Shown here: positions 23,851 to 37,500 of the stretch, one piece after another
Position numbering within the stretch: position 1 is the first letter of the stretch
Layout of the letters: the number at the start of each line of letters is the position of its first letter
Source of the DNA: an uncultured cyanobacterium
Lineage (GTDB): Bacteria; Cyanobacteriota; Cyanobacteriia; Cyanobacteriales; CAWUOF01
Assembly: GCA_963744145.1 (NCBI GenBank)
Contig: CAVUSO010000001.1
Span: forward strand, 1,408,001 to 1,472,000
DNA: 64,000 nt
Direction of reading: 5' to 3'
Made by a program: the position numbers and the translations under genes
Notes under the pieces: generated by a model
The model's input: the letters and a program-made list of their open reading frames with translations, nothing else
The model's database searches: none
Told to the model about the DNA's origin: nothing

Positions 23851-24444
23851 CTAGAGTAATGTTTTAAAATAAGTTGAAAATTTCTGAGATGGTACACCAA
23901 CCATCAAAGCAGATTCTTGGCGCAAATGAATTTCTACATCTCGTTGACGTTCGGTAAATAAACTAGCTTCTGATAAATGCCGGGAAGTCAGAAAATGAAT
24001 AGTTTGGTTAGCCGAACCGCGCCAACCTTTATTGTCATTTAGTTCCGGAATATATTGTCCGTCAATGAGAACATCAATTCTATTGAGAATTTGATCAATA
24101 GCTGGGTCTAATTTGCTTTGTAATTCCTGTAGTGTAAAACCCGTAAAACACATAATAGAAAGATCCCGATGCTGACGAAGATGGGTAAATAATTCGTTTA
24201 ATGCAGTTGCTTGTAACATTGGTTCACCGCCAGAAATTGTTATTCCATCAATGCCAGCAACTGATAAAATCTGATCAGCTAATTTTATTGGCTCGACTAA
24301 GGTAGCTTCTACCTGGGGAATCCATTCTGGGGAAATACATTCACGACAGCGAAAACAACAACCTTGCATCCAGATCACAAATCTTAGCCCTGGACCAAGA
24401 GTATAAGTAGTGGGACAGATTTCAGCAATATTGAGAAGAGTCAT
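23851..24444 (-). CDS. NrdG-like radical SAM (4Fe-4S) protein
   Basis: LGPGLRFVIWMQGCCFRCREC (CxxxCxxC), GITISGGEPMLQ, IDVLIDGQY, WRGSANQ. No nrdD in the window. Confidence 0.88.
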   Translation of the reverse strand: MTLLNIAEICPTTYTLGPGLRFVIWMQGCCFRCRECISPEWIPQVEATLVEPIKLADQILSVAGIDGITISGGEPMLQATALNELFTHLRQHRDLSIMCFTGFTLQELQSKLDPAIDQILNRIDVLIDGQYIPELNDNKGWRGSANQTIHFLTSRHLSEASLFTERQRDVEIHLRQESALMVGVPSQKFSTYFKTLL

Positions 24445-24446
24445 AT

Positions 24447-25511
24447 TTACAAAGGGATACGATTTTTTTGTTGAGCTTGTTCGTGTTTAATTAGAGCTGT
24501 TGTTAATTCTTGGTCAATTTCTGCTAAATACTGTTGGATATTTTTGACTAATGAATCAACTTTTTGGCGGTCTACTGGCAATAGGGTTCCTAATGTCCGA
24601 TCGGAGTGATAATGGGTAGTTATAGCTGTGCGAATTTCGGCGGTTTCGGTTTGATATTTTTGGAAATCTTCTCGGCATTTTTGTAATTGTTGTTGAGCTT
24701 GATGATAAGATTCTTGTTGTTGGATTAATTCTGATCGTTGTTGTTCAATGGCAGCTAATTCTTTGGCTAAAGCTTCTGATAAACTCTGTCGTTGTACTTG
24801 GGTGAGATTTATTAATTCAGAAACAGAGCCGGAGATACTATTTTCTAGTCTATTTTGTCGGGACTGCCAATAGGTAATCTCTTCTTTGAGAGTAGTTTGC
24901 TGTCGTTGTAAAGCTCCTATTTGCTCATCCAGGTCTGCTTTTTGTTGTTGCAGTGATTTGAGAATTTCTCTTTGTGGTTCTAGTTCAGCAGATTGAGTAG
25001 CGATCGCTTGACGCAAATCTTCTAGGTTAGTTTCTTGCAATGCTGTTTGAATTTCTTGGAGTTGTCTAGCTTTTTCTTTTAATGTTTGTAGATTGGTATT
25101 GTCTTCATTTAACTGTTGTTCTTGACGCAGTAAGTTAGCTGCTGATTGAATTAGTTGGGATTTATCGTTGGCAATTTGTTGGATGGATGCAGTGCGATCG
25201 CTGATTTTCTGTTTGAGTGTTATTGGTACTGGTAATGTGTTCAGGTGAGGGAGCCAAGAATTGAGAATTTCGAGCTGGGTGTTGAGGGTTTTACTCAGAG
25301 CGATCGCCCAAGCGTCTAATGTCTCTGGGTCTACATTTGCCAGTTGTCCTAGCACTTCTGGATGAAAGGTAGATTCCCAAAGGTTTATTCCTGCTGCTAC
25401 TAATTCAAAAGGCAATTTAATAGTATCAAACTCGCTCAAGCTTATTGCTTGTTCTATTTTCTGCACTAAATTTTTAAGAGTTTGTAAATCCTGTTGCTGA
25501 TTTTGCTGCAT
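24447..25511 (-). CDS. Long coiled-coil protein of unknown function
   Basis: Q/E/L-rich heptads over about 250 aa; ATG 25511 has SD-like GAGG; stop lies 2 nt from the radical SAM start. Confidence 0.85.
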   Translation of the reverse strand: MQQNQQQDLQTLKNLVQKIEQAISLSEFDTIKLPFELVAAGINLWESTFHPEVLGQLANVDPETLDAWAIALSKTLNTQLEILNSWLPHLNTLPVPITLKQKISDRTASIQQIANDKSQLIQSAANLLRQEQQLNEDNTNLQTLKEKARQLQEIQTALQETNLEDLRQAIATQSAELEPQREILKSLQQQKADLDEQIGALQRQQTTLKEEITYWQSRQNRLENSISGSVSELINLTQVQRQSLSEALAKELAAIEQQRSELIQQQESYHQAQQQLQKCREDFQKYQTETAEIRTAITTHYHSDRTLGTLLPVDRQKVDSLVKNIQQYLAEIDQELTTALIKHEQAQQKNRIPL

Positions 25512-25563
25512 AAAATCCCTCAATCTATGTAATTAAGTGTTTCTTTGAACAAGTTAAACCTGA

Positions 25564-27174
25564 TTAGTTTTCTGAATTTTCCAGCAGGACGTAACCAGGA
25601 AACATTTTGGAAATAACATTACCTAGTTGATATTCAACTACTTTTCCTCCTCTGGCTTCTTGAATTAATAAATAAGCTATTTGAGACCGATCAACTTTCA
25701 TCCCAACATGATATTTAGCGTTAGTAGAATAGTTGGGTAATTCAATCATGTCGGGTAGAGATTCTTGGTGTTTATTACCTTTAGATAAAAGCTGGACCCA
25801 GAGAGTAATAGCAATGCGATTTTCAACAGGTACAATTGGTTCAGGATAAAATTTTGGTGGTGCTAAAGTATCTAAATTAATACCACCTTCGATCAGAGTA
25901 ATCTCTGGTCTTTCCCGTTTTCCTGTGTGAATATTGATTGTTTCTAACAAAATACCAATGGTATGAACATATTTTTCTGTAGGATCGACTAAACCGTTAG
26001 CAATTAGACAAGCACCATAAGATATAGCATAAGCGCTATTAGTAATATTAAAACTTTTGTCAAGCCGGGGGTCATTTCCACCAATCCCTAAAGCATCGGT
26101 AATGGCTTTTTGAACGAGGATAAACTGACTAAATCCACCTACCATAAAAATACGATCAATTTCCATTCTTTCTTTTTGGATGTAAGATTTAACTTTTTTA
26201 ATGACATCACAAATACCTTGGGTGATCGGAGTAAAAGCCTCGTTAACTTCTCCTAATGTGATTGTGTATTCATTAAATTTATAAGCTTCATCTTGGGCTT
26301 TGTCTTCTGGAGCATTTAGATAGTTAGTTAACCTTTTAGTAGCTCGATCGTGATGGTCAATTTTAATCTTTTCAAAAGCTTGGAGTAAACTAATAAATTC
26401 TGATGTGTTTTCAGCCAAAGGTTTACCATACTTTTTAGTGTAAGCTTGTTGGATGATGCGGCGATCGAAAGCTACTCCAGCAAATTCTAATCCTTGATCT
26501 CCTTGTCCATCAAAATAGAGAACCTCTACTTTATTGTCGCCATAAATCCGACAAAGACTAACATCAAAAGTGCCACCTCCCATATCACAAACGAGTAAGT
26601 TACCGCTAAAAGATTCACTACCTTTTTGTCTAGCACGCCGTTGCGTTTCCCAGGCATAATAGGCAGCAGCAGCAACAGGTTCACTGACAAGTTGGATGAG
26701 TTGATTTTCTAGTCTTAAGTCTTTTTTAATTAATTCTTGTAGACGTTCCCGACCTAAATTATAAATATCACGTTGCCAAATTTCTGGAACTGAGACAACA
26801 ATGCTAGTAATTTCACCTTTTTCACGGCTAAAACTGTAGGATTTTTCCACAGATATTAGCAGTTCACGCAGGTAATCAACGGTAACACTAATGGGGGTAC
26901 GAGGATGGGTAAAATATTTGCTAAACTCCGATTCTGGTAAGGGCAATCTCATTTTAAAATTGCCATAAGTTTCAACAGAAGAATCATGGGCAGCGGTACT
27001 GCGGGCAGCATTACCAATTGTGATCCCCTCTGATTCATAGGCAATGAAGGAGGGGATATATTTTTGTCCATCTGGTGGTGGATAGGGAAATACTTCAAGT
27101 TCTCCGTTGGGGGTAAGGTAGGAGATAATCGAGTTGGTAGTGCCGAAGTCTAGACCGATTTTGTAAGTTGGCAT
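25564..27174 (-). CDS. Atypical Hsp70-family ATPase (not housekeeping DnaK)
   Basis: IGLDFGTTNS, VSVPEIW, LVSEPVAAA, VCDMGGGTFDVS, FMVGGFS; short divergent C-terminus. Start moved to MPTYKIG because the upstream extension runs through a REP. Confidence 0.9.
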   Translation of the reverse strand: MPTYKIGLDFGTTNSIISYLTPNGELEVFPYPPPDGQKYIPSFIAYESEGITIGNAARSTAAHDSSVETYGNFKMRLPLPESEFSKYFTHPRTPISVTVDYLRELLISVEKSYSFSREKGEITSIVVSVPEIWQRDIYNLGRERLQELIKKDLRLENQLIQLVSEPVAAAAYYAWETQRRARQKGSESFSGNLLVCDMGGGTFDVSLCRIYGDNKVEVLYFDGQGDQGLEFAGVAFDRRIIQQAYTKKYGKPLAENTSEFISLLQAFEKIKIDHHDRATKRLTNYLNAPEDKAQDEAYKFNEYTITLGEVNEAFTPITQGICDVIKKVKSYIQKERMEIDRIFMVGGFSQFILVQKAITDALGIGGNDPRLDKSFNITNSAYAISYGACLIANGLVDPTEKYVHTIGILLETINIHTGKRERPEITLIEGGINLDTLAPPKFYPEPIVPVENRIAITLWVQLLSKGNKHQESLPDMIELPNYSTNAKYHVGMKVDRSQIAYLLIQEARGGKVVEYQLGNVISKMFPGYVLLENSEN

Positions 27175-27306
27175 AATTATGTTAATTAACTGATCTATTG
27201 TATTATCCGAACAACAGCAATGCTTATCCCAGATTGCTGAAAACAGCTTCCGGACAGACTTGATCACAGCAAAATCCTGATCCACCTTATTCCTTACCTT
27301 GGACGA

Positions 27307-27336
27307 GTAGGGGCGCAAGAGATCTTGCGCCCCTAC
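27307..27336. repeat. GTAG-type REP palindrome
   Basis: GTAGGGGCGCAAGAGATCTTGCGCCCCTAC. Confidence 0.8.
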
Positions 27337-27452
27337 CAATTATTGCTCGACTAGGTGGTTGGTCTGGCTATCGGTCTCAAAAACCGCCGGGAATTGCTAC
27401 CTTAGTGCGCGGAATACACAATCGCATCTACGATCCAGGGATTATTCTATTG

Positions 27453-27706: not shown

Positions 27707-29170
27707 ATGTCTCGAACTCAATTAGAACTAAAATATATAAAATCTATACATGAAGCATTATATCCCCGTTGGGGTTGGAGTGGTGGATATATTATTGCTA
27801 ACGTTTTTGATAATGGTAAGAAAGTTGTATTAGAATGCTATGCAGAGCCTTCTCTAGAAGAATCTGCTATTCTGAGCGATAAAATACAGAATTGTTTAGA
27901 TACAGTTCCGGAAATTTTTTGGAAATTAATAGGTGGCAGAGATGAAATTAACCTGAAATTAATAAACGAAAGCAGCAGTCAAATAACAGTTAAAAGAAAT
28001 GTTCAAAAACCAGTTATTGAACAACCTTTTCAAACAAGTCTTCAACAACAAGTTACAACCGAAATTTCTAATTTATTAGATATAATTTACAAAAAAGCAG
28101 AGCAAGATATTGAAACTGTAAAAAGAATACAAGATTCTACAATTAACTACTTTTCTACAGCCAGTGATTCGGTAATTCAATGTAGTAAACAAGGAATTTA
28201 TTTTATTCAAAATAATTACACTCAAATAGTTGATGGAACTATTAAAGTTATTGAACCACTTAGACAAGAATTAATAAAATATCCTGATGATTGGCTGAGA
28301 AAACTTAATAAAGATACACTGGCAAAAGTAGATCAGGCTGAAAAAACTTTTTACATAATTAAAGAAAAAAACAAACATAAAAAAACAGATAAACTGGCTA
28401 CAGCTATAATTATTGAAAGTCTCAAGAAATCAACATTGGCTAGGTTTATAGATTCCGGAATATATGTGATTAGCTCATCATTGTTTGATATGCCTGATAA
28501 GTCATTGTCTGATTGCATTAAGCCATTGTCTGATTGGATTAAGTCTTTAGAAGATAAGAATTATCCTTTTCTAAATCAGATGATATTGATATCGGAAAAG
28601 ATAGATGAAGAAATAAGAAAAACGTTTGAACAACCAAAAACGTCAGATTTAATGCTGGCTATGATTGTTCAGATTGCTTGTGTTTATGAACGTGCAAACT
28701 TTCATTCCTCAGAAAAGCAAGCAGAATTAGTCTGTATTTTAATAATTTCATTTTTATGCAGTTTAGCTGTAGATATGGAATTTATAGATTTCTGCAAAAA
28801 GATTATCTCTAATCTAAATTTAGAACAAATTCTGCAAAAAATGGGAATAAGTTATGATAAAGATTTAATTAATAAAATTCAAAAAAATATCGCTCCTAAT
28901 AACAATTTGGTTAATCTTTTACAAAATTTCTTAGTTTCTATTAGTATGAATATAGCTCTTTTCTTGTTGGTTGGTTTTATTGCTAAATATATTTACCAAA
29001 ATTATGATAAGATTTTTGAAATTATAGGATCAATAAACTTATATAATCAAATCAAAGCCGAAGCTAGTAAGTCTGTTTTAGAAATAACACAAAAGACTAA
29101 CATTATTGAAAATGCTATTGTTGAATGCTATCAGACCGGAAAACTTACTAAGACTAGCGATCGCATCTAA
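27707..29170 (+). CDS. AT-rich hypothetical protein, possibly a divergent EcsC-family protein
   Basis: SD AGGAG; DDWL...KVDQAEKT...KLATAIIIE...AMIVQIACVY...KQAELVCILII is reminiscent of cyanobacterial EcsC proteins; hydrophobic C-terminal helices. Confidence 0.7.
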   Translation: MSRTQLELKYIKSIHEALYPRWGWSGGYIIANVFDNGKKVVLECYAEPSLEESAILSDKIQNCLDTVPEIFWKLIGGRDEINLKLINESSSQITVKRNVQKPVIEQPFQTSLQQQVTTEISNLLDIIYKKAEQDIETVKRIQDSTINYFSTASDSVIQCSKQGIYFIQNNYTQIVDGTIKVIEPLRQELIKYPDDWLRKLNKDTLAKVDQAEKTFYIIKEKNKHKKTDKLATAIIIESLKKSTLARFIDSGIYVISSSLFDMPDKSLSDCIKPLSDWIKSLEDKNYPFLNQMILISEKIDEEIRKTFEQPKTSDLMLAMIVQIACVYERANFHSSEKQAELVCILIISFLCSLAVDMEFIDFCKKIISNLNLEQILQKMGISYDKDLINKIQKNIAPNNNLVNLLQNFLVSISMNIALFLLVGFIAKYIYQNYDKIFEIIGSINLYNQIKAEASKSVLEITQKTNIIENAIVECYQTGKLTKTSDRI

Positions 29171-29221: not shown

Positions 29222-29410
29222 CTATTCAGACTGCGATCGCTTCCACATCCTAATCGCCCAATCTAGTTTTCCTCGTTCCTTCTCCAAAAAAGCTTCCGGC
29301 AATTGCCCAGGAAAAGTCAATGGATATGGCATCATATCCCATTCGCAAGTACAGCAGAAGCTTACCTGTCCTTCAACATATTCATTTTGACAAACCGGAC
29401 ACTGTACCAT
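29222..29410 (-). CDS. 62-aa Zn-ribbon protein or truncated gene, paralogous to the dynamin N-terminus
   Basis: SD GAGG then MVQCPVCQNEYVEGQVSFCCTCEWDMMPYPLTFPGQLPEAFLEKERGKLDWAIRMWKRSQSE; shares an 18-aa identical run with the dynamin N-terminus. Confidence 0.75.
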   Translation of the reverse strand: MVQCPVCQNEYVEGQVSFCCTCEWDMMPYPLTFPGQLPEAFLEKERGKLDWAIRMWKRSQSE

Positions 29411-29412: not shown

Positions 29413-29562
29413 CTAATTCCTCACAAATCCAAACACAGTCCTCAACATTTCCCCCAACGCTGCTGAGAAGTCGGAGTGACAAATATTGCCACCCCGCTCG
29501 CAGATAGGTCGGAAAATCTCGGATAACTCCTCACCAGGATAATTGCTAAATTCGATTTTGTA
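29413..29562 (-). pseudogene. Remnant of the C-terminal lid of a paralogous CbbX/SpoVK-type AAA ATPase
   Basis: Manual translation YKIEFSNYPGEELSEIFRPICERGGNICHSDFSAALGEML aligns with YKIEFPDYNDNELSQIFINLCQKSGWIVTPEVSARLREIF of the 30822-33377 protein. Confidence 0.7.
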
Positions 29563-29613: not shown

Positions 29614-30777
29614 TTAAAACTCTTGTACCGAATTCACAGTAATAGAGCGTTTGAGCAGTCGTTTCAGCAGGGTTAAATCCCTTATGGCAAAAAGCCTATT
29701 TCTTATGGTATCTGGTACGACGGAAAACCGCGTTTCCAAAATATCAATGATAGCTTCACGCGCAATTTCCAATTTTGCATCTCGCTCAAAACTGCTCATG
29801 TATGGCTGTCTTTCTTGCTCCATTCTTCTCAATCTTTGAGCATCTTCGCTCTGGCTTTCTGACAGCCGTTGTACAAATTCTTCTACAGATGCTACCGTTA
29901 CTGCCGGGACTAGCAATTCTTCGATCAATTCCAAATTCCCGATCTGATTAATTCTTTCAATCAAATCCGTTGGCACGACTGAAAACCGCGTTTCCAGAAC
30001 TTTGATAGCAGATTTGCGAGCAATTTCCAATTTTCCATCCCGTTCAAAACTAATCATGTATGACATTCGTCTTTGCTCCTCTATTTGCTTGATTTCCGTT
30101 TTAAACTCTTGCTGAATTGCCTCTGGTAAAACCATGATCCATTCAATGAACCGGAGCAGCTCCGATATCTGATTTCTACTATAACCCCGTTGGTAAAGTC
30201 GGCGCACTAAGCTTAACTTTGACTGGAAACGTTGCTCTAAATCGTTGCGTGTTGCCTGGGTTTCTAAATGAGCCGCGATAATTGTAGCAAAGGGATTGGT
30301 GCTTTCTGCTAGGATAGAAGCTGGATAGTCAAGTAGTTTCACAACTGGAAACTGCAAATTGCTCTCAAATCCCCATCGACTATAACTATATCCGGTTGGT
30401 CGCCAATTCCTATTTTCGTCTCCTAATATTGCAAAACTGAACACTTTTTGCCGATAGCGATCAAACAATCTATGATTGTAGATATACATCCGTTCGGCAA
30501 AATCTAACTGCTCTTGTCCTTGGATTTCGACGTGAATTAATACCAGGGCATCTTCACCTGAATTCAACCATACCTTTATTAGCTTATCTGCTAAACGTCT
30601 CCCGGTTTCGGCATCACGAATCAGTTCTTGCAATTCGGTATCTAAGGTTTCATATCCTCTCTCCCAATTAATATCACTGTGAACAGCGGGAAAACAAAAA
30701 GCCATAAATGCTTCAAAATAGATAGTGAGTGCTTCTTTCCAAGCACTATCGTAATCCGATCGCAGTTCTTCTACCAT
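29614..30777 (-). CDS. Rpn / PD-(D/E)xK putative transposase-like nuclease with a duplicated DUF4351-like C-terminal domain
   Basis: DYDSAWKEAL...RRLADKLIKVW...VLIHVEIQG...FAERMYIYNHRLFDRY; two C-terminal repeats YMxSFERDxKLEIAR..I..LETRFSVVP. Start moved to ATG 30777. Confidence 0.85.
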   Translation of the reverse strand: MVEELRSDYDSAWKEALTIYFEAFMAFCFPAVHSDINWERGYETLDTELQELIRDAETGRRLADKLIKVWLNSGEDALVLIHVEIQGQEQLDFAERMYIYNHRLFDRYRQKVFSFAILGDENRNWRPTGYSYSRWGFESNLQFPVVKLLDYPASILAESTNPFATIIAAHLETQATRNDLEQRFQSKLSLVRRLYQRGYSRNQISELLRFIEWIMVLPEAIQQEFKTEIKQIEEQRRMSYMISFERDGKLEIARKSAIKVLETRFSVVPTDLIERINQIGNLELIEELLVPAVTVASVEEFVQRLSESQSEDAQRLRRMEQERQPYMSSFERDAKLEIAREAIIDILETRFSVVPDTIRNRLFAIRDLTLLKRLLKRSITVNSVQEF

Positions 30778-30821
30778 ATAGTAACCTTCTACTCCTCTAA
30801 TTGATTGTAAAAAGACATCAC

Positions 30822-33377
30822 TTAACCCTCCCAATCTAGTATATCCTCTAACTTAAATGTCTTCATTGCATCCCCAGTTAAATTATCTCGTACAATTCGA
30901 TTTTTTAGTCGGGCCACTGTTTTTTCGTAAAAATTACGCACCTCTCTAGCATTACCAAAATTTCTCCCTTTATTTTGATACATTTTCTGAAAAATTTCCC
31001 GCAAACGTGCTGATACTTCTGGGGTAACAATCCACCCAGATTTCTGACACAGATTGATAAAAATTTGGGACAATTCATTATCATTATAGTCGGGAAATTC
31101 AATCTTGTAGGCAATTCGGGAAGCGATCCCGGAGTTAGCAGAGATAAACTGTTCCATTTCACGGGAATATCCTGCTAAAATAACTACTAGGCGATCGCGT
31201 TCGTTTTCCATAACTGGTACTAAAGTATCGATCGCTTCTCGCCCAAAATCCCACTGAGCTTCACCTTGTCGAGACAGAGCATAAGCTTCATCAATAAACA
31301 ACACTCCATCCAAAGCAGATTGAATTGCTTCCGCAGTTTTCAGTGCTGTTTGTCCTACATATCCAGCTACTAATTTTTCTCTATTTACTTCGATAAATTG
31401 TCCTTTTTGTAATAACCCCAACGCCTTAAAAATTTGTCCAATTAATCGCGCTATTGTAGTTTTTCCCGTTCCAGGATTTCCAGTAAATAACAGATGTCGT
31501 GTTTCTATTTCCTCCTTAGTTTGCATTCCTGCTTCCCGCAGACGTTGATTGGCAATTTGAGTATTAACGATTTCCCGAATCGCTTGTTTTACTGAATGCA
31601 ACCCAATCATCTGATCTAATTCTTGCAATAATTTCTGTAAAATTTCCTCATTTTTTCTTCCCTCTTGACGATACTGAGTAGGCAAATCTACTATTTGAAA
31701 AGGTTCTCGTAACGGATCAAGATTCTGTTCAACAACTCGCTGACTTCGCCGCTCATCTATCTGGTTAAACAAATTTTCTACTAACCCAGCATTTCCGAAA
31801 TTCTGGTCGCGTCTTTCATAAAGCTGAGTAAACAAATTCCTTAGCACTTCTGTCAATTCGGGTGTAATTGAACACTGCACTCGCGATACTCGTTGTTGAA
31901 AAATTGCTAATAATTCGGCAGGGGTATAATCTTCAAAAATAATTTCATTAGCAAAGCGACGATTTAACCCAGGATTTGAGTTAATAAAATCTTCCATCTG
32001 AACTGGGTATCCAGCTACAATTACTGCCAATCGATGCCGATCGTCTTCCATCCGTTTCAGCAAGGTATTTATTGCTTCTTGCCCAAAATCATTTCCTCCA
32101 CCCTGATTCAATGTATAAGCTTCGTCAATAAATAACACACCGTCAAGGGCTTCATCGATAATTTCATTGGTACGAATAGCTGTTTGTCCTATATATCCTG
32201 CTACTAAATCTCGCCCTCCTACTTCTCGCACATGACCCCGCTTTAACAGTCCCAAATCACGATATATTTCGCCAATTAATCTGGCAACTGTAGTTTTTCC
32301 GGTGCCAGGATTGCCTTTAAAAATATAATGTAGCCGAGCCGGGTCGGTGCTAATTCCTTGTTGTACCCGTTTTTGCTCAACTTCAAGGATTTGCATTCGT
32401 CGTCGAATGGTATCTTTTACTGATGTCAGACCAATCATTTGCTGTAATCGTTCTTGTGCGGGTTCTGTACTCATATCTCCTGAGAGCCAATTTAGCCGAC
32501 GTGCTTCCGTTAGGGATATTTGACGAGCAGCTTGAAAGCGATCGCACCAATGTTTTAGAGAGTGGTTTTCTGCGGCGATCCAAACAGATAATTTTTCTGC
32601 TGTTATCCAATCTACTATCTTCTGGTGTTTGAGTCGGAAATAATCATTTAAAGCTCTAATTTCGCTTGGATCTGGAGAAGTTAGGCGAACCAAATTAAAC
32701 CCACGATTTGCTAATAGATTGCGGTTAGTGATCAGGTTTGCTAAAAATGTAAATCCTATGCGATCGCAAAAGTTTTTCAATTCGGTGCGATTTTCATGGT
32801 GAAAAATTAAAATACAAAGGTTATTATTATGAGGAGGTAAGCGCGACCAATCTACGACCCGACCAAATAATTCGCGTCGGTTGTTGAAATGCTCTAAGTC
32901 TTCAGCGTGAGAAAAGATAATGGCAGATTTTTGAGATTTGTCCTCCATGACGGTTTGAAAAATCGGCAAGATGTTAATATCCTGTAACCGTCTGGTTGGG
33001 AAATTTGGTGATGTGGGTGTTGGTAATGGTGGATCATTTGTTTGGGTTGATCGTCTACCAAGCAATCCGCGCTTAGATCCCAATGGACCAGGTGTTACCC
33101 GCATTTGGGCTGAGGATACGGAATTGAGGGGAGTTTGAGGTTGGAGACGACAGCGATCGCGCGATCGTTGATCGAGAAAATATAGCTTTTGAACACCTGA
33201 ATAAAATAGTATCCGCTCATAACCTTGAGAACGAAGATATTCGTGCAACACTTCCTCGATATTTAGCAGCAATAAATCTGGAGTGCAAAAAGTATCGCTG
33301 GTGTTCACTCCATAGAAAATCAGGAAGCGATCGCCTGATTGTAAATTTAATTCTGATGTAACTCTGGCAACTGACAT
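30822..33377 (-). CDS. Tandem AAA+ ATPase, CbbX/SpoVK/EccA family, with a ~300-aa N-terminal region
   Basis: Two modules, each with MIGL..VK, GNPGTGKTT (Walker A), LVAGY.GQTA, VLFIDEAY (Walker B), VIxAGY, an Arg-finger region and NFGNA lid. Confidence 0.93.
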   Translation of the reverse strand: MSVARVTSELNLQSGDRFLIFYGVNTSDTFCTPDLLLLNIEEVLHEYLRSQGYERILFYSGVQKLYFLDQRSRDRCRLQPQTPLNSVSSAQMRVTPGPLGSKRGLLGRRSTQTNDPPLPTPTSPNFPTRRLQDINILPIFQTVMEDKSQKSAIIFSHAEDLEHFNNRRELFGRVVDWSRLPPHNNNLCILIFHHENRTELKNFCDRIGFTFLANLITNRNLLANRGFNLVRLTSPDPSEIRALNDYFRLKHQKIVDWITAEKLSVWIAAENHSLKHWCDRFQAARQISLTEARRLNWLSGDMSTEPAQERLQQMIGLTSVKDTIRRRMQILEVEQKRVQQGISTDPARLHYIFKGNPGTGKTTVARLIGEIYRDLGLLKRGHVREVGGRDLVAGYIGQTAIRTNEIIDEALDGVLFIDEAYTLNQGGGNDFGQEAINTLLKRMEDDRHRLAVIVAGYPVQMEDFINSNPGLNRRFANEIIFEDYTPAELLAIFQQRVSRVQCSITPELTEVLRNLFTQLYERRDQNFGNAGLVENLFNQIDERRSQRVVEQNLDPLREPFQIVDLPTQYRQEGRKNEEILQKLLQELDQMIGLHSVKQAIREIVNTQIANQRLREAGMQTKEEIETRHLLFTGNPGTGKTTIARLIGQIFKALGLLQKGQFIEVNREKLVAGYVGQTALKTAEAIQSALDGVLFIDEAYALSRQGEAQWDFGREAIDTLVPVMENERDRLVVILAGYSREMEQFISANSGIASRIAYKIEFPDYNDNELSQIFINLCQKSGWIVTPEVSARLREIFQKMYQNKGRNFGNAREVRNFYEKTVARLKNRIVRDNLTGDAMKTFKLEDILDWEG

Positions 33378-33472: not shown

Positions 33473-33554
33473 CTTAAGATTTTCCCATCTGTTAATTTTA
33501 CCAAGTTATCTATCAAGCCAATCTACCTGTCTGATCTAGCATAATTTTATAAGA

Positions 33555-35960
33555 TTATAGCAAACTTCTAATCTCGATTAATTTATCTAGATATTGCTGA
33601 AGATCAATTTTATCTTTTTCTAATCTCTGTCGAATTTCAATAGTTTCTACTTCTCTTGTTTCTCGTTCTTTCAACAATTGATCAAACTTGGTTTGAAAAT
33701 TATTAATGTAATTATTAATTTGGTCTTCAGCATTTTTAAAATCTTCTGACATTTGTTTTTCAATGACATTTTTTAACAAAACTTTAATTTGCGCTACTTG
33801 GGGATCTATTTTTGACGTTATTTCTTGTTTTATTCTGTTCAAATCAATCTCATAATAGTCAACGGTTTCTTCATAATGAACCTCGACTTCAGTCAATATA
33901 TCATCATTACAGCAACGCTTTTCACGGTTGAATTCTTTGCGCGTTCTCCAGAAAACTTCCTGCTGTTTTAAAACTTGGGCATCGATCCCCGTAAATTGAA
34001 ATCTGGGAAATTGGATTTGACTATTATTCAGTTCTATTCGTAGACTTTGTCCTAAATAGTTAGAAAGCTCTTTGGAAATAGATTGGGTAGTCTGCTGAAT
34101 TTCTTGGACAAGTTTCTCTCTAATTTCTGTTCCATCTCGGACAAGCTTATCTTGGGTATCTAACCACCAGGTCTGAATCACAGGAGCGCAGTATTTATTT
34201 ATTGTATCTACAATTTTATCAGCATCATCGCGGTTATTAACTCTAATTTTGTAAGGATCTGAACTACGATTTCCAGTAAAATCATCAAAGATTTTTTTTA
34301 AATGATCTAATAAGCTATCTGACGATGAATCAGGATTTTGCTTATTCTCACTATTGGCAACCCGGTCGATCTCTATACCAATATTCTTTTTAGCTTCTTG
34401 AGCAAATTGCTTAATTCCGCGATTAAATCCATCAATTAGGTTACCTTTTTCCTTTTTAAGAGACTTGTTTATGTTTTCTACTTCTTTTTTGGCGATATCA
34501 GCGCGTTTCCTATATCCCTGTACTGTACTTTTGAGAGTTTCAAGTTCCGTTTCCCATCCTCGGATTTCTGTATTTAACATATCCTCTATAGATTGGGCGC
34601 TTTTCTCTATTTTTGCCAATACATCATTTAGCAGATTCCAACCGGAGTTCTGAACTACTTTTTGAATCACTGAATTTTCGATCTTGGGAATACCACTTTC
34701 TGGTAAAGCTTGTTCAGCAGCTTCAGCATCTTCCAACAAGATTCTCTTCCCATTTGGATCTGTTATAATCAGATAACGTCCAAAGTTATTTTGAAAATCC
34801 TCTTTATCTTGCTGAATTGCTGTTTGATTAAGAATTAATTTAGATAACAATCCTTGTAAAGCACTAACAGGATAAATATTTGGGTTGGGAATACCAAAAT
34901 CAATCAAAATTTTTCTTAAATCATTAATAACATCGTCAATAGCTCGATCACGAACTTGCTTTCTATCAATTTTATTCAGAATAAAAAAGATTTTACCCTG
35001 GTCACTAATCAAAGAATCTTTTCGTTCCTTTAAGATTTTAATCAATTCGGAATTAGTCTGATCTTTAAAAGAAGAATAATCTAATATAAATAAAATAACA
35101 TCACAAGTTCGCAGCGATTCCAAGGCAGTTTTCTTCAAGATAGTGGTATCAAAATTAGCAGATTGCCATTCATTAGGTCCAGGAGTATCTACCAAAGTAA
35201 ACCCTGTCAAGGAAGAAAAATTACTGATTGCTTCAATCGGATATTGAAGTTCAAATCTAGTGGTGCGATCGCGATTGTTGGTGGCTCGTATTTCGTGGGT
35301 ACGTTCTAAAAATTTCTGCTTAATTATCTGGGCATTTCCCTCCACAAGTACCGAAGGTTTTTTATGCGCTTCTCGATATTCCAGCAGTTTGGGAGTTGCT
35401 GAAGTAGCGATCGGACGAATATCGGTGCGACAGACAGTACAAGCTTCAGATTCACTAGCTAGTACATCAGCACCTATGATCGCATTGAGAAAGGTACTTT
35501 TACCTGCTTTCATTGCTGCAATCACAGCCACTTGATATTTTTGCTCTTTCAAAGCTGTTAAAGCTTGAGTTAAATCTTCTTCAATACTTTGGAATTCCTT
35601 AGTTTTATTTCCCTCCTTTAATCGTCCACTTCTAAATTCTTTAATGTACTGTAAAAGACAAGTACCAGTTTCAGAAAGACGGTTATATGCTCGTTGAAAT
35701 TGTTCAGAAGGTTTTGCTGGATCAGACTGGGGAGAATTAGTCATCATATTTAACAATCGGTCTAGTTGTACTTTTTGATCTTGATACTTAAGCCAAATCT
35801 GCTTTGCCCAAAACAGTTTTGCTCGTTCCTTCTCCAAAAAAGCTTCCGGTAATTGTCCAGGAAACGTTAGGGGATAGGAAGTCAAATCCCATTCACAGAC
35901 AGAACAAAAATTGACCTGAGCTTCAATAAATTCAGTTTGACAAACTGGACAATTAGCCAC
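33555..35960 (-). CDS. Dynamin-like GTPase (CrfC/YjdA-like) with an N-terminal Zn-ribbon module
   Basis: G1 AAMKAGKST, G2 EACT, G3 LVDTPGPNE, G4 LNKID, VSALQG, long helical stalk; N-terminal CPVC...CSVC. GTG start at 35960 preferred. Confidence 0.9.
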   Translation of the reverse strand: MANCPVCQTEFIEAQVNFCSVCEWDLTSYPLTFPGQLPEAFLEKERAKLFWAKQIWLKYQDQKVQLDRLLNMMTNSPQSDPAKPSEQFQRAYNRLSETGTCLLQYIKEFRSGRLKEGNKTKEFQSIEEDLTQALTALKEQKYQVAVIAAMKAGKSTFLNAIIGADVLASESEACTVCRTDIRPIATSATPKLLEYREAHKKPSVLVEGNAQIIKQKFLERTHEIRATNNRDRTTRFELQYPIEAISNFSSLTGFTLVDTPGPNEWQSANFDTTILKKTALESLRTCDVILFILDYSSFKDQTNSELIKILKERKDSLISDQGKIFFILNKIDRKQVRDRAIDDVINDLRKILIDFGIPNPNIYPVSALQGLLSKLILNQTAIQQDKEDFQNNFGRYLIITDPNGKRILLEDAEAAEQALPESGIPKIENSVIQKVVQNSGWNLLNDVLAKIEKSAQSIEDMLNTEIRGWETELETLKSTVQGYRKRADIAKKEVENINKSLKKEKGNLIDGFNRGIKQFAQEAKKNIGIEIDRVANSENKQNPDSSSDSLLDHLKKIFDDFTGNRSSDPYKIRVNNRDDADKIVDTINKYCAPVIQTWWLDTQDKLVRDGTEIREKLVQEIQQTTQSISKELSNYLGQSLRIELNNSQIQFPRFQFTGIDAQVLKQQEVFWRTRKEFNREKRCCNDDILTEVEVHYEETVDYYEIDLNRIKQEITSKIDPQVAQIKVLLKNVIEKQMSEDFKNAEDQINNYINNFQTKFDQLLKERETREVETIEIRQRLEKDKIDLQQYLDKLIEIRSLL

Positions 35961-35994
35961 ACCTACTCTCACTAAGAAATTAGTTGACAATCTT

Positions 35995-37500
35995 TTAAGA
36001 AGATATCTTACCAAATTGTTCCGGTTTAACCTGCCGTCCTTTCACTTTCTCTATATTCTGATATTCCTGTCTTGCCTGTGGATTACATTCTAGCGGTCTA
36101 CCCTGTACCCCTTCTTCCTTCAAAGCATCAAAAATAGCGTCAGCATTGTCTTTTGTAGCTTTCTCATCTACTATAGTTTGACTAAATGTGTTAATCGAAA
36201 CCGAGTTGGCTCCAAATTCTTTCTCTGGACTAATTATGGTGACCACTTCATCACCAGCTATATTTTTTACCTTGACTACATAAGCATTTCTTTGGTCATC
36301 ACCTTCATAAACAGCGTCAGATTCTCTATTCTCAAGATTGTATCCCAATGACTCAAGCGTTTCTACAATTCTGTCGGCAATTTCCACCCGCAATTGCGAG
36401 CCTAATATTGTTAGTTTTGCCTGTTCGACAATTTCTCCTAGTTTTGGTTGTAAAGCAGTTATTTTTTCTCCTAACTCCTTCAGTTGTTCAATGGTAAGCG
36501 TCGATTCACCAGTTTTTAATTGCGATTCCAACTGCTGCAATTGTTCTGCATACTGGCTCAAGCGACCATTAACCCAGTAATCTACTTCCAATTGAAATTT
36601 CTCAGCCTCATTACCCTGACCAACTTCAATTTCGCATTGTCGATTAGCTTGTACTTCAGTAATTAAAGTTTTTAAATCCTCCAATGCAGCACTATAAAGT
36701 AACAACCATTCTTGCTCTTTTTGTTCCAATTCCAACCGTAAATCTGCCAAATCTAAATAAGTTTGTTGAGTTGTGGCGATCGCTGCTTCAGTGACACCAG
36801 CTTGGATATTAGTTCGAGCTATTTCCAATCCCCTACGCAAATCTGCCAAACGTCCAGGAGCAAATCGCTCATGTTGGTAATCCCGATTAATTTGTGACCA
36901 AACTGTTTCTACATCTGCAAGTAACTCTTTAGCTATCTGTGCTTTTCGCTGTTTTTCCTGTACAAGGTCTGTCACCACCTGATCAATCTGCTGCTGAAGA
37001 ATTTGTTGTCCCTGTTCTCTTGCTTGCCGTTCCTCTCCAATCAACTGAGTAAATTTTTGGTCTTGTTGTTTAATTAATCGGGTATATTCCTGCCGTTGTT
37101 CAGAGGTAATTCGCAAATATTCACTACGTTGCTGCTCAAACCCTTGACGCATAGCCGATTCTAAACGATTTGTCTCTCGCTCTAACGCCTGTTGTTGACG
37201 ATACTCGGTCTCACGTACTGCTGTTTGAAATTCTTCTCGTTGTTTCTGCAAACGCTTTTGGGTGTTTTTTTCTGTATCGGCTAGACTGCTTCTGAGTTTC
37301 TGTGTTTCTTGTTCCTGCTGTCGAGCGCGTTGTTCTAAAGGTGCTAAACGTTGCTGAAACTCTTGCCGTGCTTGCTCTCTAACTGCATTCAACCGCTCTG
37401 GTAAATCCTGTTGTACAGACCGTAATCGGCTCTCCTGTTCCCGGAGTCGTCGCAACTCTTGGTCTTCAACCTGGACATACCGTCGTTTTTCGCCACTCAT
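35995..37500 (-). CDS. Coiled-coil protein with a small C-terminal alpha/beta domain; first gene of the dynamin-AAA cluster
   Basis: About 190 aa of R/Q/E heptads, then HERFAPG, EVDYWVNG, LESLGY...VVKVKNIAGDEVVTII; SD GGAG. Confidence 0.88.
   Translation of the reverse strand: MSGEKRRYVQVEDQELRRLREQESRLRSVQQDLPERLNAVREQARQEFQQRLAPLEQRARQQEQETQKLRSSLADTEKNTQKRLQKQREEFQTAVRETEYRQQQALERETNRLESAMRQGFEQQRSEYLRITSEQRQEYTRLIKQQDQKFTQLIGEERQAREQGQQILQQQIDQVVTDLVQEKQRKAQIAKELLADVETVWSQINRDYQHERFAPGRLADLRRGLEIARTNIQAGVTEAAIATTQQTYLDLADLRLELEQKEQEWLLLYSAALEDLKTLITEVQANRQCEIEVGQGNEAEKFQLEVDYWVNGRLSQYAEQLQQLESQLKTGESTLTIEQLKELGEKITALQPKLGEIVEQAKLTILGSQLRVEIADRIVETLESLGYNLENRESDAVYEGDDQRNAYVVKVKNIAGDEVVTIISPEKEFGANSVSINTFSQTIVDEKATKDNADAIFDALKEEGVQGRPLECNPQARQEYQNIEKVKGRQVKPEQFGKISS

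Follow-up and report, generated by a model that had tools for sequence, protein, structure and literature searches.

A candidate five-gene chaperone module with zinc-ribbon-headed variable partners in a filamentous cyanobacterium

Introduction

In the Hsp70-ClpB bichaperone disaggregase, a coiled coil couples Hsp70 to a two-ring AAA+ unfoldase, and bacterial dynamins have a membrane-protective role. The described systems closest to the locus presented here include the MoxR-vWA (VMAP and related) ternary conflict systems of multicellular prokaryotes (Kaur, Burroughs, Iyer and Aravind 2020, PMC7159879; extended in PMC8195603). GUN4, FGS, FtsK and repeats are listed as effectors of the cyanobacterial ternary systems (PMC7159879, PMC8195603), and neighbourhoods with chaperones and radical-SAM enzymes have been noted in predicted immune systems (PMC7159879 among the sources). 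A cyanobacterial dynamin 'chaperone clade' has also been described, with a DnaK-domain gene downstream of 11 listed genes, the annotated downstream gene being a 'molecular chaperone' in 5 of the 11 (Jilly et al. 2018, PMC5827413).

Here we analyse a window of 64,000 nt (the whole stretch of DNA considered; 39.4% GC) from a filamentous cyanobacterium that carries a putative five-gene chaperone set together with a dynamin bearing a zinc-ribbon (ZnR) head. A sequence-only reading of this DNA had taken all six genes for one undescribed system; its observation is partly confirmed, and its interpretation partly supported, by the work below.

Results

Layout of the cluster

Six open reading frames (ORFs), all on the minus strand, were confirmed between positions 23851 and 37500:

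35995..37500, minus strand: CC501 (501 aa), a coiled-coil protein whose C-terminal domain is alpha/beta; predicted core component
33555..35960 (ORF to TTG 36014, 819 aa), minus strand: ZnR-dynamin, Dynamin_N 3.5e-18; slot 1
30822..33377, minus strand: AAA851 (851 aa), two AAA and two AAA_lid_6 domains; predicted core component
25564..27174 (ORF 25564-27339), minus strand: Hsp70, Pfam HSP70 5.2e-22; predicted core component
24447..25523, minus strand: CC358, a coiled-coil protein of 354-358 aa (ATG 25511 gives 354 aa); predicted core component
23851..24444, minus strand: radical-SAM (rSAM) enzyme (197 aa), Fer4_12 1.9e-30; predicted core component

The two tight blocks in which the sequence-only reading had placed these genes were reproduced, with gaps of 34 nt (GTG start 35960), 177 nt, 52 nt (ATG 25511) and 2 nt. 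It had also called the DNA between the blocks inserted or decayed, and this held for some 3.5 kb containing the following:

29614..30834, minus strand: unclassified 406-aa ORF, between AAA851 and the AAA-lid remnant
29431..29562, minus strand: AAA-lid remnant, a pseudogene fragment (matched in tblastn by AAA851 residues 757-800 at 41% identity, E 3e-5)
29222..29410, minus strand: head-only ZnR ORF, 62 aa from ATG 29410; slot 2
27707..29170, plus strand: AT-rich 487-aa ORF (28.5% GC against 39.4% for the window)

The 406-aa ORF had been labelled 'Rpn', a label that no library supports: it matched no family in Pfam or NCBIfam at E<=0.01, gave only chance-level matches at E<=5 and has no relative in the PDB. 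Its C-terminal part carries an internal duplication (109-nt direct repeat, 29713-29821 and 29971-30079), no counterpart lies at the same position in related loci L003, L011 and L080, and it is a probable insertion. The AAA-lid remnant is riddled with stop codons and lies in a different frame from the ZnR ORF. The latter ends directly after the head, is 63% identical to dynamin residues 19-80 and lies in a 159-nt direct repeat (77% identity with 35793-35951), and it is a paralogue of the dynamin head. Both the remnant and the head-only ORF were missing from the sequence-only reading. The AT-rich ORF is either foreign or spurious; it matched no family (Pfam, NCBIfam, PADLOC), had no usable Atlas match and gave no tblastn match in any related locus. 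The window copy is thus rearranged, with inserted ORFs, a remnant and a truncated head, and its function may be incomplete.

Three further features lie at the edges of the cluster:

23357..23826, no strand: tandem 116-nt (x2) and 88-nt (x2) repeats, palindrome-bearing, downstream of the rSAM gene
37833..37896, no strand: 26-nt inverted repeat (hairpin) upstream of CC501, single local copy
37973..38449, minus strand: stand-alone GUN4-like gene (GUN4 7.9e-30) directly upstream of CC501

MITEs had been claimed at both ends. The repeats that follow the rSAM gene are indeed MITE-like, their core motif having four matches in the window (17044, 23671, 23759, 59497) with none expected, but the other end has only the one local hairpin, which is terminator-like on the plus strand. 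The GUN4-like gene is possibly associated with the cluster, since ZnR heads carry GUN4 more often than any other body; no ZnR remnant was found upstream of it. A neighbouring Uma2 gene was confirmed (2.4e-47). The genes flanking the cluster in the window are otherwise of housekeeping type (AspRS, M48 peptidase, MacB/HlyD and PHA genes) and do not form a defence island, which counts against a conflict reading.

Core proteins

CC501 matches no family in Pfam, NCBIfam or PADLOC. Its homologues fall into 191 clusters, and in the 120 rows listed they are named 'hypothetical protein', bar one UniRef 'Smc' label, with no Pfam domain among them; no phage homologue was found. The AF2 model (pLDDT 79) comprises a helix at 84-207, helical bundles and an alpha/beta domain at 396-472, and gave no match in the PDB at E<=0.001 (Foldseek). 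CC358 has only weak SMC/JetC coiled-coil matches.

AAA851 (Pfam AAA 4.9e-36 and AAA_lid_6 1.3e-23, two stretches each) matches CbbX (3syk, 1.2e-57) and EccA1 (9lur, 1.5e-48). Walker A (GNPGTGKT) stands at 355 and 633, Walker B (VLFIDEA) at 414 and 692, and AGY[IV]GQT, which we take to be the pore loop, at 393 and 671, so that the protein is probably a CbbX/SpoVK/EccA-type tandem AAA+ with two active domains. Its N-terminal ~300 aa, kept in 7/7 aligned homologues, are read as a degenerate AAA-like D0.

The Hsp70 (DFGTTN at 9, DMGGGTFD at 197) has homologues of ~530-545 aa starting at MxxYKIGLDFGTTN. Sequence matches to DnaK/BiP are limited to residues 6-393, and it scores at a similar level against HscA, the Fe-S chaperone. 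In the AF2 model (pLDDT 87.4, pTM 0.88) beta strands run from 397 to 516, and the model resembles ATP-state BiP/DnaK over about 570-590 columns (Foldseek, E 1.9e-25). We interpret this as a lidless Hsp70, the model suggesting a nucleotide-binding domain and a beta-sandwich substrate-binding domain without the alpha-helical lid.

The rSAM enzyme has CX3CX2C at 29 and GGEP at 72, resembles PFL-activating enzyme (8fo0, 1.6e-8) and reaches neither the PflA nor the NrdG family cut-off (NrdG TIGR02491, 94.2 bits against 126.1); it is probably a small PflA/NrdG-like radical-SAM enzyme. Across the cluster ORFs the NTPase and radical-SAM motifs are intact, as had been claimed for the NTPases and is confirmed in both AAA+ domains, the dynamin and the Hsp70. 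No J-domain or GrpE gene was found in the cluster, and no MoxR or vWA domain in the window (Pfam, NCBIfam).

Related loci

Every related locus was found through Hsp70, and the counts that follow express linkage given Hsp70. Of 79 loci fetched with an Hsp70 profile, 18 were accepted as true relatives, at 27-76% identity and, unless the contig ended first, near full length; in L002 and L007 the contig breaks off. One plasmid locus brought the sample to 19. All five core genes occur together in 4/19 loci (L011, L012, L015 and L080, the last, from Calothrix, being the only one on a mobilizable plasmid). Four are present in L001 and L003, where the position of CC501 lies beyond the contig end, and also in L017, a locus from a distant bacterium which reads rSAM-CC501-AAA-Hsp70 at 29-39% identity with a weak CC358-like ORF (2.2e-5). 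The diverged set is thus also found in a non-cyanobacterial MAG. L013 (Nitrospirae) reads CC501-Hsp70-ZnR-FGE-sulfatase, again with a weak CC358-like ORF (2.7e-8).

Gene order and orientation vary by locus and divergence is parallel across the proteins. The two blocks are linked, in several arrangements, in L001, L003, L011, L012, L015, L017 and L080. CC501 homologues adjoin an AAA+ or Hsp70 gene in L011, L012, L013, L015, L017 and L080; a CC358 homologue lies directly 3' of Hsp70 in L001, L002, L003, L009, L010, L011, L012, L015 and L016, and in L080 is fused to a TPR protein. The rSAM homologue, present in L001, L003, L009, L011, L012, L015, L017 and L080, is absent from L016 and, within the available stretch, from L013. 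Hsp70 stands without a partner in 6/19 loci within the available stretch (L004, L005, L006, L008, L014, L018; the first three are one species group), and L007, whose contig ends inside the Hsp70 gene, has no partner upstream. Named homologues come almost entirely from filamentous cyanobacteria, and relatives also occur in a Nitrospirae, a Chloroflexaceae and an unclassified bacterial MAG. Neighbours of the related loci include caspase, CHAT and trypsin genes, and the L017 system adjoins a PDC-M26A-like gene (1.3e-31) and a DUF2357/McrC-N protein.

Taken together, CC501, the tandem AAA+, the lidless Hsp70, CC358 and the rSAM enzyme form a recurrent five-gene set. The co-occurrence anticipated for six genes is therefore borne out for five, while the dynamin body fails to recur.

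Zinc-ribbon heads

The head of the ZnR-dynamin spans about residues 19-80 of the 819-aa ORF (CxxC pairs CPVC at 22 and CSVC at 37), with the GTPase body behind it (G1, G3 and G4: AAMKAGKS at 166, DTPG at 276, NKID at 347). Such heads are ~70 residues long, with CxxC-x11-CxxC followed by WDLxPYPxTF...LPExFLxKExxKLxWA, and are usually succeeded by a coiled coil and then by a body that differs by genome. A profile of the head drew 427 protein clusters at E<=1e-3. Of the 150 listed, almost all have a head that begins at residue 1, and the bodies among these include GUN4 (25), FGE-sulfatase (17) and WD40 (11), with TPR, PP2C (2), FtsK, SepF, SH3 and coiled coils also among the matches listed. A dynamin body was not seen on any of these 150.

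ZnR heads occur in 8/19 related loci, usually adjoining or overlapping the AAA gene (in L003, L011 and L080 the ZnR gene directly follows it). Their fusion partners there are coiled coils, FGE-sulfatase, WD40 or GUN4; L016 has a ZnR-GUN4 fusion beside the system. This variable slot differs even between close relatives. The head alone recurs, the body of this dynamin being found in 0/19 loci. Among 120 dynamin homologues listed, 81 lack an N-terminal extension, and in 33 there is one of ~150-225 aa, which in the four read has a hydrophobic start; only P0391-P0393 were confirmed as ZnR-headed from the N-termini read. On a Calothrix brevissima plasmid, a homologue with 54% identity has other surroundings, without Hsp70, AAA+ or rSAM genes and with no chaperone downstream. 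Since the body is absent from all 19 loci and the head was confirmed on so few of its homologues, we take the dynamin to be an exchangeable cargo that an adaptor carries and not to belong to the core.

Discussion

The reading we favour, with slightly more doubt than conviction, is that in the window lies a single, rearranged copy of an accessory chaperone module of five conserved genes working with ZnR-headed variable proteins, likely in a conflict role. To all appearances the set is a system of conflict or defence that has yet to be described, as the sequence-only reading supposed: PADLOC has no match for it, and a full-text literature search turned up no paper describing these genes together. 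Its most likely biological role in filamentous cyanobacteria, we infer, is conflict, directed against phages or mobile elements and possibly working by abortion or containment. The earlier leaning in this direction gains circumstantial support from the variable modules, the plasmid carriage and the caspase, CHAT, trypsin and PDC-M26A neighbours. Against our reading stand the housekeeping flanks, the absence of a PADLOC match, the six loci in which Hsp70 has no partner, the missing rSAM gene of L016, the failure to find a phage homologue of CC501 and the rearranged state of this copy.

The mechanism of the sequence-only reading, in which coiled-coil proteins and dynamin would polymerise, possibly on membranes, with AAA+/Hsp70 recycling them, needs to shift its focus to the ZnR adaptors, and the physical interactions and order of events that we infer from the gene content, conservation, intact motifs, architectures and variable fusions are as follows. 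CC501 would be a long coiled-coil scaffold and CC358 a second coiled-coil protein, while the ZnR head would be the constant handle recognised by the core. AAA+ and Hsp70 would hold, unfold or reset ZnR-headed proteins on these scaffolds, whose assembly would then have to pass a threshold that this ATP-dependent remodelling sets, much as proposed for the MoxR-vWA ternary systems. The bodies may be sensors, decoys or effectors borrowed from cell-biological machinery, and in the window copy the dynamin would provide the output by remodelling or sealing membranes. The rSAM enzyme, a constant part in this scheme, could place a glycyl-type radical or other modification on a partner, or might be a switch that responds to SAM or redox state.

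A cell-biological or proteostasis system seems to us unlikely, if still deserving of weight. Coiled-coil proteins would here form cytoskeleton-like filaments, the ZnR head would target division, membrane or pigment factors, and AAA+ and Hsp70 would maintain or remodel them, with no conflict role. The SepF, FtsK, dynamin and GUN4 bodies would fit such a role equally well, PP2C is also among the bodies, CC501 is a long helical protein in its AF2 model, and the housekeeping flanks and the near restriction of named homologues to filamentous cyanobacteria point the same way; the cyanobacterial dynamin-Hsp70 linkage has moreover been read as membrane-related (PMC5827413). However, FGE-sulfatase and WD40 bodies are described as binding modules typical of predicted conflict systems (PMC7159879). 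The distribution is also patchy, with Hsp70 alone in six of the loci, relatives in a Nitrospirae, a Chloroflexaceae and an unclassified bacterial MAG and one copy on a mobilizable plasmid, the variable slot changes between close relatives, and the caspase, CHAT, trypsin and PDC-M26A-like neighbours do not suit this role.

Activases of the PflA/NrdG type act on proteins, and the rSAM enzyme is seemingly of this type. The system could then centre on maturation, with Hsp70 and AAA+ delivering or unfolding a ZnR-headed or coiled-coil substrate for radical modification and the product, not the chaperones, as the output, an idea we consider quite improbable. The rSAM gene is found in 8/19 loci, always within the cluster, the Hsp70 scores similarly against HscA, and radical-SAM enzymes possibly modifying a peptide effector have been proposed in FtsH ternary systems (PMC7159879). 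Yet sequences inspected by eye contained no glycyl-radical enzyme or recognisable substrate motif in the cluster, L016 and L013 have no rSAM gene in the available stretch, and the NrdG and PflA cut-offs are unreached.

The fixed six-gene machine of the sequence-only reading, with dynamin as a core polymerising part beside the coiled-coil proteins and AAA+/Hsp70 recycling them, is very improbable. In its favour, the window has the six ORFs intact and on the same strand, and one related plasmid has an unrelated dynamin-family gene ~5 kb from Hsp70, but dynamin as core is already contradicted by the 0/19 loci; the 150 ZnR-headed proteins, the 120 dynamin homologues and the Calothrix brevissima plasmid, each as reported above, speak against it as well. 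That two unrelated operons became neighbours by chance through insertions is scarcely credible despite the ~3.5 kb parting them, being already contradicted by the loci in which both blocks are linked.

Comparison with known systems

Returning to our preferred reading of a chaperone module with ZnR-headed partners, Eleos/LeoABC is comparable through the Dynamin_N GTPase of the ZnR-dynamin and a weak LeoBC match (PADLOC, 3.2e-14), but the window has no LeoA partner and the dynamin is not conserved with the cluster. The 'chaperone clade' (PMC5827413) similarly joins a dynamin gene to a DnaK-domain gene; as described it is a two-gene linkage only, without AAA+, coiled-coil, rSAM or zinc-ribbon component, and the 54%-identical plasmid homologue of our dynamin has no chaperone downstream. 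Hsp70-ClpB is a plausible mechanistic analogue, although the AAA+ here is of CbbX/EccA type, the coiled coils are separate proteins and neither a J-domain nor a GrpE gene accompanies them. Cyanobacterial orthocaspases with C-terminal GUN4, FGE-sulfatase or WD40 share the three bodies that dominate ZnR-headed proteins, but have an N-terminal caspase domain where we find a non-enzymatic zinc-ribbon head.

Type III CoCoNuT (PMC11090510) also combines coiled coils with an Hsp70-like NBD/SBD protein, CnuD, in a predicted defence operon, one subtype has a tandem SpoVK-family AAA+ extension, and the DUF2357/McrC-N and PDC-M26A-like neighbours of L017 add to the likeness. In contrast, the window has no McrB GTPase, McrC or HEPN domain; the CoCoNuT ATPase bears LRR and barrel domains and is described as active in its C-terminal AAA domain only, while AAA851 keeps Walker A and B in both, and radical SAM occurs 0 times in the full text of PMC11090510. 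DO-GTPase/GAP1-N2 systems (PMC7159879) are likewise NTPase-centred and variable, with HSP70-family proteins, GrpE and zinc ribbons on components, and a weak DO-GTPase-like gene (Pfam 1.3e-4, below cut-off) stands beside ZnR-coiled-coil genes in L003, L012 and L080. They are described there as nearly absent from cyanobacteria, and the window has no DO-GTPase, GAP1, FNIII protein or GrpE.

The MoxR-vWA ternary systems differ in their parts. The window has neither MoxR nor vWA; its core unites an rSAM enzyme and two coiled-coil proteins with a lidless Hsp70 and a tandem AAA+ of CbbX/SpoVK/EccA type, and the linker is an N-terminal zinc-ribbon-helix head in place of the helical EADs or Death-like domains described for those systems. 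The accessions of the Calothrix plasmid copy are not in the supplements searched for these systems, which for PMC8195603 comprised all but one file. What the two have in common is a conserved NTPase-chaperone core with highly variable linked modules, the same bodies (GUN4, FGS/FGE-sulfatase, FtsK and repeats) and a preference for filamentous cyanobacteria, and the cluster is best read as analogous to the MoxR-vWA ternary conflict systems.

Gene layout of the cluster

The genes of interest form two blocks with a spacer between them, and are bordered by a Uma2 gene on one side and a GUN4-like gene on the other.

Features of the cluster (window positions)
22750-23325 (+): Uma2 gene, bordering the cluster on the radical-SAM side
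23851-24444 (-): rSAM, a 197-aa radical-SAM enzyme, last in transcription order
24447-25523 (-): CC358, a coiled-coil protein, after the Hsp70 gene; an ATG at 25511 gives a 52-nt gap
25564-27174 (-): Hsp70-like gene; ORF open to 27339, homologues begin MxxYKIGLDFG
27707-29170 (+): ORF487, an AT-rich 487-aa ORF, 28.5% GC against 39.4% for the window
29222-29410 (-): short zinc-ribbon ORF, between the 406-aa ORF and the Hsp70 gene
29614-30834 (-): 406-aa ORF, after AAA851
30822-33377 (-): AAA851, an 851-aa tandem AAA+ protein, after the zinc-ribbon dynamin
33555-35960/36014 (-): zinc-ribbon dynamin fusion; a GTG start at 35960 gives a 34-nt gap
35995-37500 (-): CC501, a coiled-coil protein, first in transcription order
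37973-38449 (-): GUN4-like gene, bordering the cluster on the CC501 side

The gaps of 34, 177, 52 and 2 nt given in the sequence-only reading were reproduced using the GTG at 35960 and the ATG at 25511, and its description of the NTPase motifs as intact was borne out by motif inspection for the AAA+, dynamin and Hsp70 proteins; the radical-SAM motifs are present as well. AAA851 carries Walker A, Walker B and an AGY[IV]GQT motif, which we take to be the pore loop, in both of its modules. The dynamin keeps G1, G3 and G4 (AAMKAGKS at 166, DTPG at 276 and NKID at 347), the Hsp70 has both phosphate-binding motifs, and rSAM has CX3CX2C and GGEP. A promoter and terminator scan of 23300-38600 returned chance-level numbers (43 against 44.0 and 11 against 10.7), and a search of 22000-39000 with Rfam gave no matches.

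Elsewhere in the window, a 934-aa Cache-HAMP hybrid histidine kinase (9328-12132) adjoins a 2024-aa signalling protein (3040-9114, minus strand) with Ser/Thr kinase, AAA_16 NTPase, GAF, histidine kinase and receiver domains. An FHA-Ser/Thr kinase gene at 41943-43912 (+) is followed by a small FHA-domain gene, with an M50 peptidase on the opposite strand. The AAA_21/AAA_15 ATPase at 46924-48093 (+), of a kind annotated as AbiEii/OLD-like and flanked on both sides by small ORFs of no family, is possibly a separate small defence gene.

Co-occurrence of the core genes

On the evidence of sequence and neighbourhood, the data show a conserved and mobile five-gene chaperone and radical-SAM module (Hsp70, AAA851, CC501, CC358 and rSAM) that travels with proteins combining a zinc-ribbon-helix (ZnR) head with a variable body. 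A genome scan seeded with a 20-sequence Hsp70 alignment returned 79 loci, 18 of which (L001-L018) are true relatives, with 27-76% identity over almost their full length, save where a contig stops short (L002 and L007). L019 and L032 hold short Hsp70 fragments only. Of the other 59 loci, 58 are ordinary DnaK-like genes without a match to any other window protein, the exception being L074 with a weak 25% dynamin-like match. A tblastn search against plasmids added L080, which lies on pCAL6303.02, a mobilizable plasmid from Calothrix sp. PCC 6303, bringing the total to 19 loci.

Within this set, all of it ascertained through Hsp70, CC358 adjoins Hsp70 in 10 of the 19 loci (in L080 as a fusion to a 1316-aa TPR protein), an rSAM gene is present in 8, AAA+ in 7 and CC501 in 6. 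The full five-gene core was found in L011, L012, L015 and L080, and L001 and L003 have four core genes, the position of CC501 lying past the contig end. More distant loci include an unclassified bacterial MAG (L017), with rSAM-CC501-AAA-Hsp70 at 29-39% identity, and a Nitrospirae locus (L013) with CC501-Hsp70; home-made HMMs also picked out weak, possibly compositional, CC358-like ORFs in L013 (2.7e-8) and L017 (2.2e-5). Hsp70 stands without a partner, over the stretch examined, in L004, L005, L006, L008, L014 and L018 (L004-L006 being one species group), and L007 has no partner upstream, its contig ending within the Hsp70 gene. In Trichodesmium an AAA-CC501 pair is divergent from Hsp70-CC358-rSAM, and the L080 plasmid has the order Hsp70-TPR/CC358-rSAM-CC501-AAA. 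This variation in gene order and orientation argues for selection on linkage, not for shared ancestry of one arrangement.

The zinc-ribbon-helix head

The ZnR head was seen in 8 of the 19 loci, at times twice, usually with a coiled coil next and then a body that differs from locus to locus: an FGE-sulfatase in L001 and L013, WD40 in L011 and GUN4 in L016. In L003, L012, L015 and L080 the body is a coiled coil with or without a 360-aa domain of no known family. When a profile built from ten heads was run on 1.84 billion representative proteins, 427 clusters matched at E≤1e-3 and 148 at E≤1e-10. Among the best 150 of the 427, whose protein lengths range from 40 to 2105 aa, the head sits at residue 1 in nearly all, and Pfam identified GUN4 in 25, FGE-sulfatase in 17 and WD40 in 11. 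The 28 remaining listed proteins of at least 280 aa had a family in 9 cases (TPR 2, PP2C 2, and FtsK/SpoIIIE, SepF, SH3_3 and DUF3331 one each) and none in 19; P0241 is one further ZnR-TPR fusion. Judged by this spread of partners, the head is an adaptor-like module.

Two further arrangements involve ZnR-headed genes. A convergent two-gene cassette follows ZnR-coiled-coil genes at L003:3432-5429 (-), L012:6493-8639 (+) and L080:23558-25557 (-). One of the two genes encodes a 319-494-aa protein with an apparent membrane segment in L003 and L012; the product of the other, a ~330-aa P-loop GTPase, shows a weak, sub-threshold similarity to DO-GTPase1/2 (1.3e-4). A ZnR-coiled-coil-X gene that is uninterrupted in the sister MAG L015 is split by the cassette in L012, which looks as though the cassette were mobile or directed at ZnR-coiled-coil genes. 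Upstream of the main Hsp70, L011 (6277-9965) and L016 (5623-9839) each carry a second triad. It groups a divergent Hsp70 paralogue of 578-590 aa, whose two copies are 70% identical, with a ZnR-coiled-coil protein of 218-303 aa and a ~520-aa protein of no family, which is fragmented in L011.

The dynamin body

The 819-aa fusion belongs to the Dynamin_N superfamily (PF00350, 66.6 bits against a cut-off of 27). The sequence-only reading had made this protein a fixed part of a six-gene machine, which is contradicted by the related loci: a match to the dynamin body was found in 0 of 19. The body was likewise seen in 0 of the 150 listed ZnR-headed proteins. On this distribution the dynamin is a cargo and no part of the core. 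Cyanobacteria have many members of its family (451 clusters); among the best 120 of these, an N-terminal extension is missing from 81 and is ~150-225 residues long in 33, beginning with a hydrophobic stretch in all four inspected, and the ZnR head was read on P0391-P0393. On a plasmid of Calothrix brevissima, a homologue with 54% identity is flanked by two hypothetical genes and has no chaperone, AAA+ or rSAM gene close by.

What appears to be a paralogue in the window's own genome, P0403 (724 aa, 55% identical), is without the ZnR head. On the L080 plasmid (NC_019728.1), a vWA-domain gene and then an unrelated dynamin-family gene occupy 4033-7009, ~5 kb upstream of Hsp70 and with parA/parB in between.

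Proteins of the core

The second module of AAA851 matched CbbX (3syk, 1.2e-57) and EccA1 (9lur, 1.5e-48). Against the CbbX family TIGR02880 the protein scored 418.6 bits, summed over two stretches, for a cut-off of 459.25, and against EccA (TIGR03922) 440.2 bits for a cut-off of 466.65, which places it outside both. AAA851 consists of two modules and an N-terminal region, where CbbX is defined by a single AAA+ module; the matches listed for it, 25 of 27 families, include no TPR, and the cluster is without an ESX family. The SpoVK cut-off (TIGR02881, 422.95) is passed, at 516.8 bits, only when both tandem modules are added up, and the match shows subfamily kinship rather than orthology; SpoVK is a single-module sporulation protein of spore-formers, and the nearest relatives here point to a cyanobacterial host. 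The first ~300 residues, conserved in 7 of 7 aligned homologues, look like a degenerate AAA module.

Membership of the Hsp70 superfamily is clear (PF00012, 78.2 bits against 20.6); scores against the DnaK and HscA equivalogs (76 and 73 bits) fall far below their cut-offs of 648-822, and the protein is not a canonical member. Its sequence matches to DnaK/BiP span residues 6-393 only. The AF2 model (pLDDT 87.4, pTM 0.88) has a beta-rich domain at 397-516 and ends at residue 536, and aligns with ATP-state BiP/DnaK over ~570-590 columns (E 1.9e-25). On this model the protein is an Hsp70 that has a nucleotide-binding domain and a substrate-binding beta-sandwich and lacks the helical lid. Neither a J-domain nor a GrpE family turned up in the family search of the cluster.

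CC501 matches no named family; its homologues fall into 191 clusters, and the names among the 120 listed are all 'hypothetical protein' save one UniRef 'Smc' label. The model of CC501 (pLDDT 79) combines helical bundles with one helix of 124 residues and, at the C-terminus, a small alpha/beta domain; Foldseek returned no PDB match at E≤0.001, and tblastn gave no match in phages and one plasmid record. CC358 gave coiled-coil-type matches only, and in the ESM Atlas SMC-like coiled-coil clusters only, below 0.9. A kinship between CC358 and the ZnR-coiled-coil proteins through the motif W[LI]P[HD]L was considered and dropped, hhalign giving a probability of 10% in the coiled-coil region only.

Spacer and repeats

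The spacer between the two blocks is, from its parts, a mosaic. Comparing the window with its own proteins by tblastn, we located the dynamin's N-terminal zinc ribbon a second time, at 29225-29410 (63% identity), and, at 29431-29562, a stretch resembling AAA851 residues 757-800 (41%, E 3e-5). In translation, the zinc-ribbon ORF ends right after the head, and the AAA-lid fragment is interrupted by stops and lies in a different frame from that ORF. In L003, L011 and L080 a ZnR-headed gene directly follows the AAA gene; what the window retains is therefore a trace of an earlier junction between AAA and a ZnR gene, with the 406-aa ORF upstream and the AT-rich ORF downstream. We rejected the idea that the ZnR fragment is a former N-terminus of Hsp70, whose homologues are ~535 aa and begin MxxYKIGLDFG.

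AAA_lid_6-like pieces also occur outside full AAA+ genes at L013:5611-6576 (+), fused to a trypsin-like protease, and at L016:4525-4962 (-), as a 145-aa ORF adjoining a caspase gene. Rather than being simple decay, the remnant at 29431-29562 in the window may belong with these pieces.

The 406-aa ORF had been taken for an Rpn nuclease, but the libraries place it neither there nor in another family: Pfam and NCBIfam gave no family at E≤0.01 and only chance-level matches at E≤5, and the best PDB match had an E of 0.36. ORF487 had no usable match in the ESM Atlas; that it might correspond to the convergent two-gene cassette of L003, L012 and L080 was rejected, there being no similarity.

Tandem 116-nt and 88-nt repeats lie at 23357-23826, 3' of the rSAM gene, and a palindrome-bearing repeat core recurs in the window at 17044, 23671, 23759 and 59497 (4 matches, 0 expected), a dispersal consistent with a MITE-like element. 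Of the proposed MITEs at both ends, the rSAM side shows these tandem repeats with their dispersed core, and the CC501 side a single hairpin only.

Possible function

We tentatively favour a chaperone-gated conflict system, which would be comparable to the MoxR-vWA ternary systems but not one of them. The ZnR head would be a putative handle for the core, the AAA+ protein and Hsp70 would use ATP to hold and reset ZnR-headed proteins on the coiled-coil scaffolds, and the dynamin would be the output arm in this genome. Neighbours of the related loci include a caspase and a CHAT protein in L016, the AAA_lid_6-trypsin fusion in L013, and, in L017, a PDC-M26A-like gene (1.3e-31) together with a DUF2357/McrC-N protein.

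A bolder version is rather doubtful. It envisages an immune or programmed-death-type system of multicellular cyanobacteria and a few other bacteria, in which the ZnR adaptor would tether borrowed host modules (dynamin, SepF, FtsK, GUN4, lectin-like FGE-sulfatase, WD40) to a private Hsp70 and tandem AAA+ unfoldase on coiled-coil scaffolds, and a glycyl-radical-type rSAM would activate or kill through a novel chemistry; the outcome would be chaperone-gated 'guard/decoy' immunity built from parts unrelated to MoxR-vWA or STAND. If the chaperone-gated reading holds, the NTPase-gated conflict systems would gain a new type of core machine (CbbX/EccA-type tandem AAA+, lidless Hsp70, two coiled coils and an activase-like rSAM), and a new adaptor domain would be defined, accounting for hundreds of puzzling cyanobacterial proteins (ZnR-GUN4, ZnR-FGE-sulfatase, ZnR-WD40 and others). 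That reading would likewise offer a genetically tractable case of Hsp70/AAA+ gating of an immune or cell-fate output in multicellular bacteria, and the first context for CC501 and CC358, two families without any annotation.

The wider flanks of the window are housekeeping genes. A cell-biological role for the cluster, in place of conflict, is in our view unlikely. A maturation pathway centred on the radical-SAM enzyme is more improbable still. By sequence rSAM is nearest to the NrdG and PflA activases, with scores below the cut-off for each (94.2 against 126.1 and 61.6 against 231.75 respectively); no glycyl-radical enzyme family lies within the window, and L016 is without an rSAM gene over the stretch examined.

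Comparison with known systems

PADLOC reported no known or candidate system in the window, and a full-text literature search found no paper describing the gene set, although supplements outside that search may hold such neighbourhoods. The cluster falls outside Eleos/LeoABC, the 819-aa protein having a weak LeoBC match (3.2e-14, 51 bits) and LeoA no match among the 8 proteins scanned by PADLOC. It also lacks the components of MoxR-vWA systems, no MoxR or vWA family being listed for the 15 proteins at 18477-41278 (for the AAA+ protein, among 25 of 27 families); AAA851 is of CbbX/SpoVK/EccA type, whereas the AAA+ of those systems is of MoxR type. GUN4, FGS and FtsK are named as effectors of cyanobacterial ternary systems by Kaur et al. 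(2020, 2021; PMC7159879, PMC8195603).

No DO-GTPase or GAP1 family was found in the window, which sets the cluster apart from the DO-GTPase/GAP1 systems; a gene in L003 gave sub-threshold DO-GTPase1/2 matches only. DO-GTPase systems with HSP70 and GrpE are said in PMC7159879 to be nearly absent from cyanobacteria. Nor is the cluster a CoCoNuT, with no McrB-like GTPase or DUF2357 in the window; DUF2357 occurs only in the distant locus L017, adjoining the system but outside it. Type III CoCoNuTs that have an Hsp70-like CnuD and a SpoVK-type AAA+ extension are described in PMC11090510. In a search listing, the terms GUN4, FGE-sulfatase and WD40 co-occur in papers on cyanobacterial orthocaspases. 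Besides the MoxR-vWA ternary systems, the DO-GTPase systems and the type III CoCoNuTs, the closest published descriptions are a triad with HSP90 and a radical-SAM enzyme and the 'chaperone clade' of cyanobacterial dynamins (PMC5827413).
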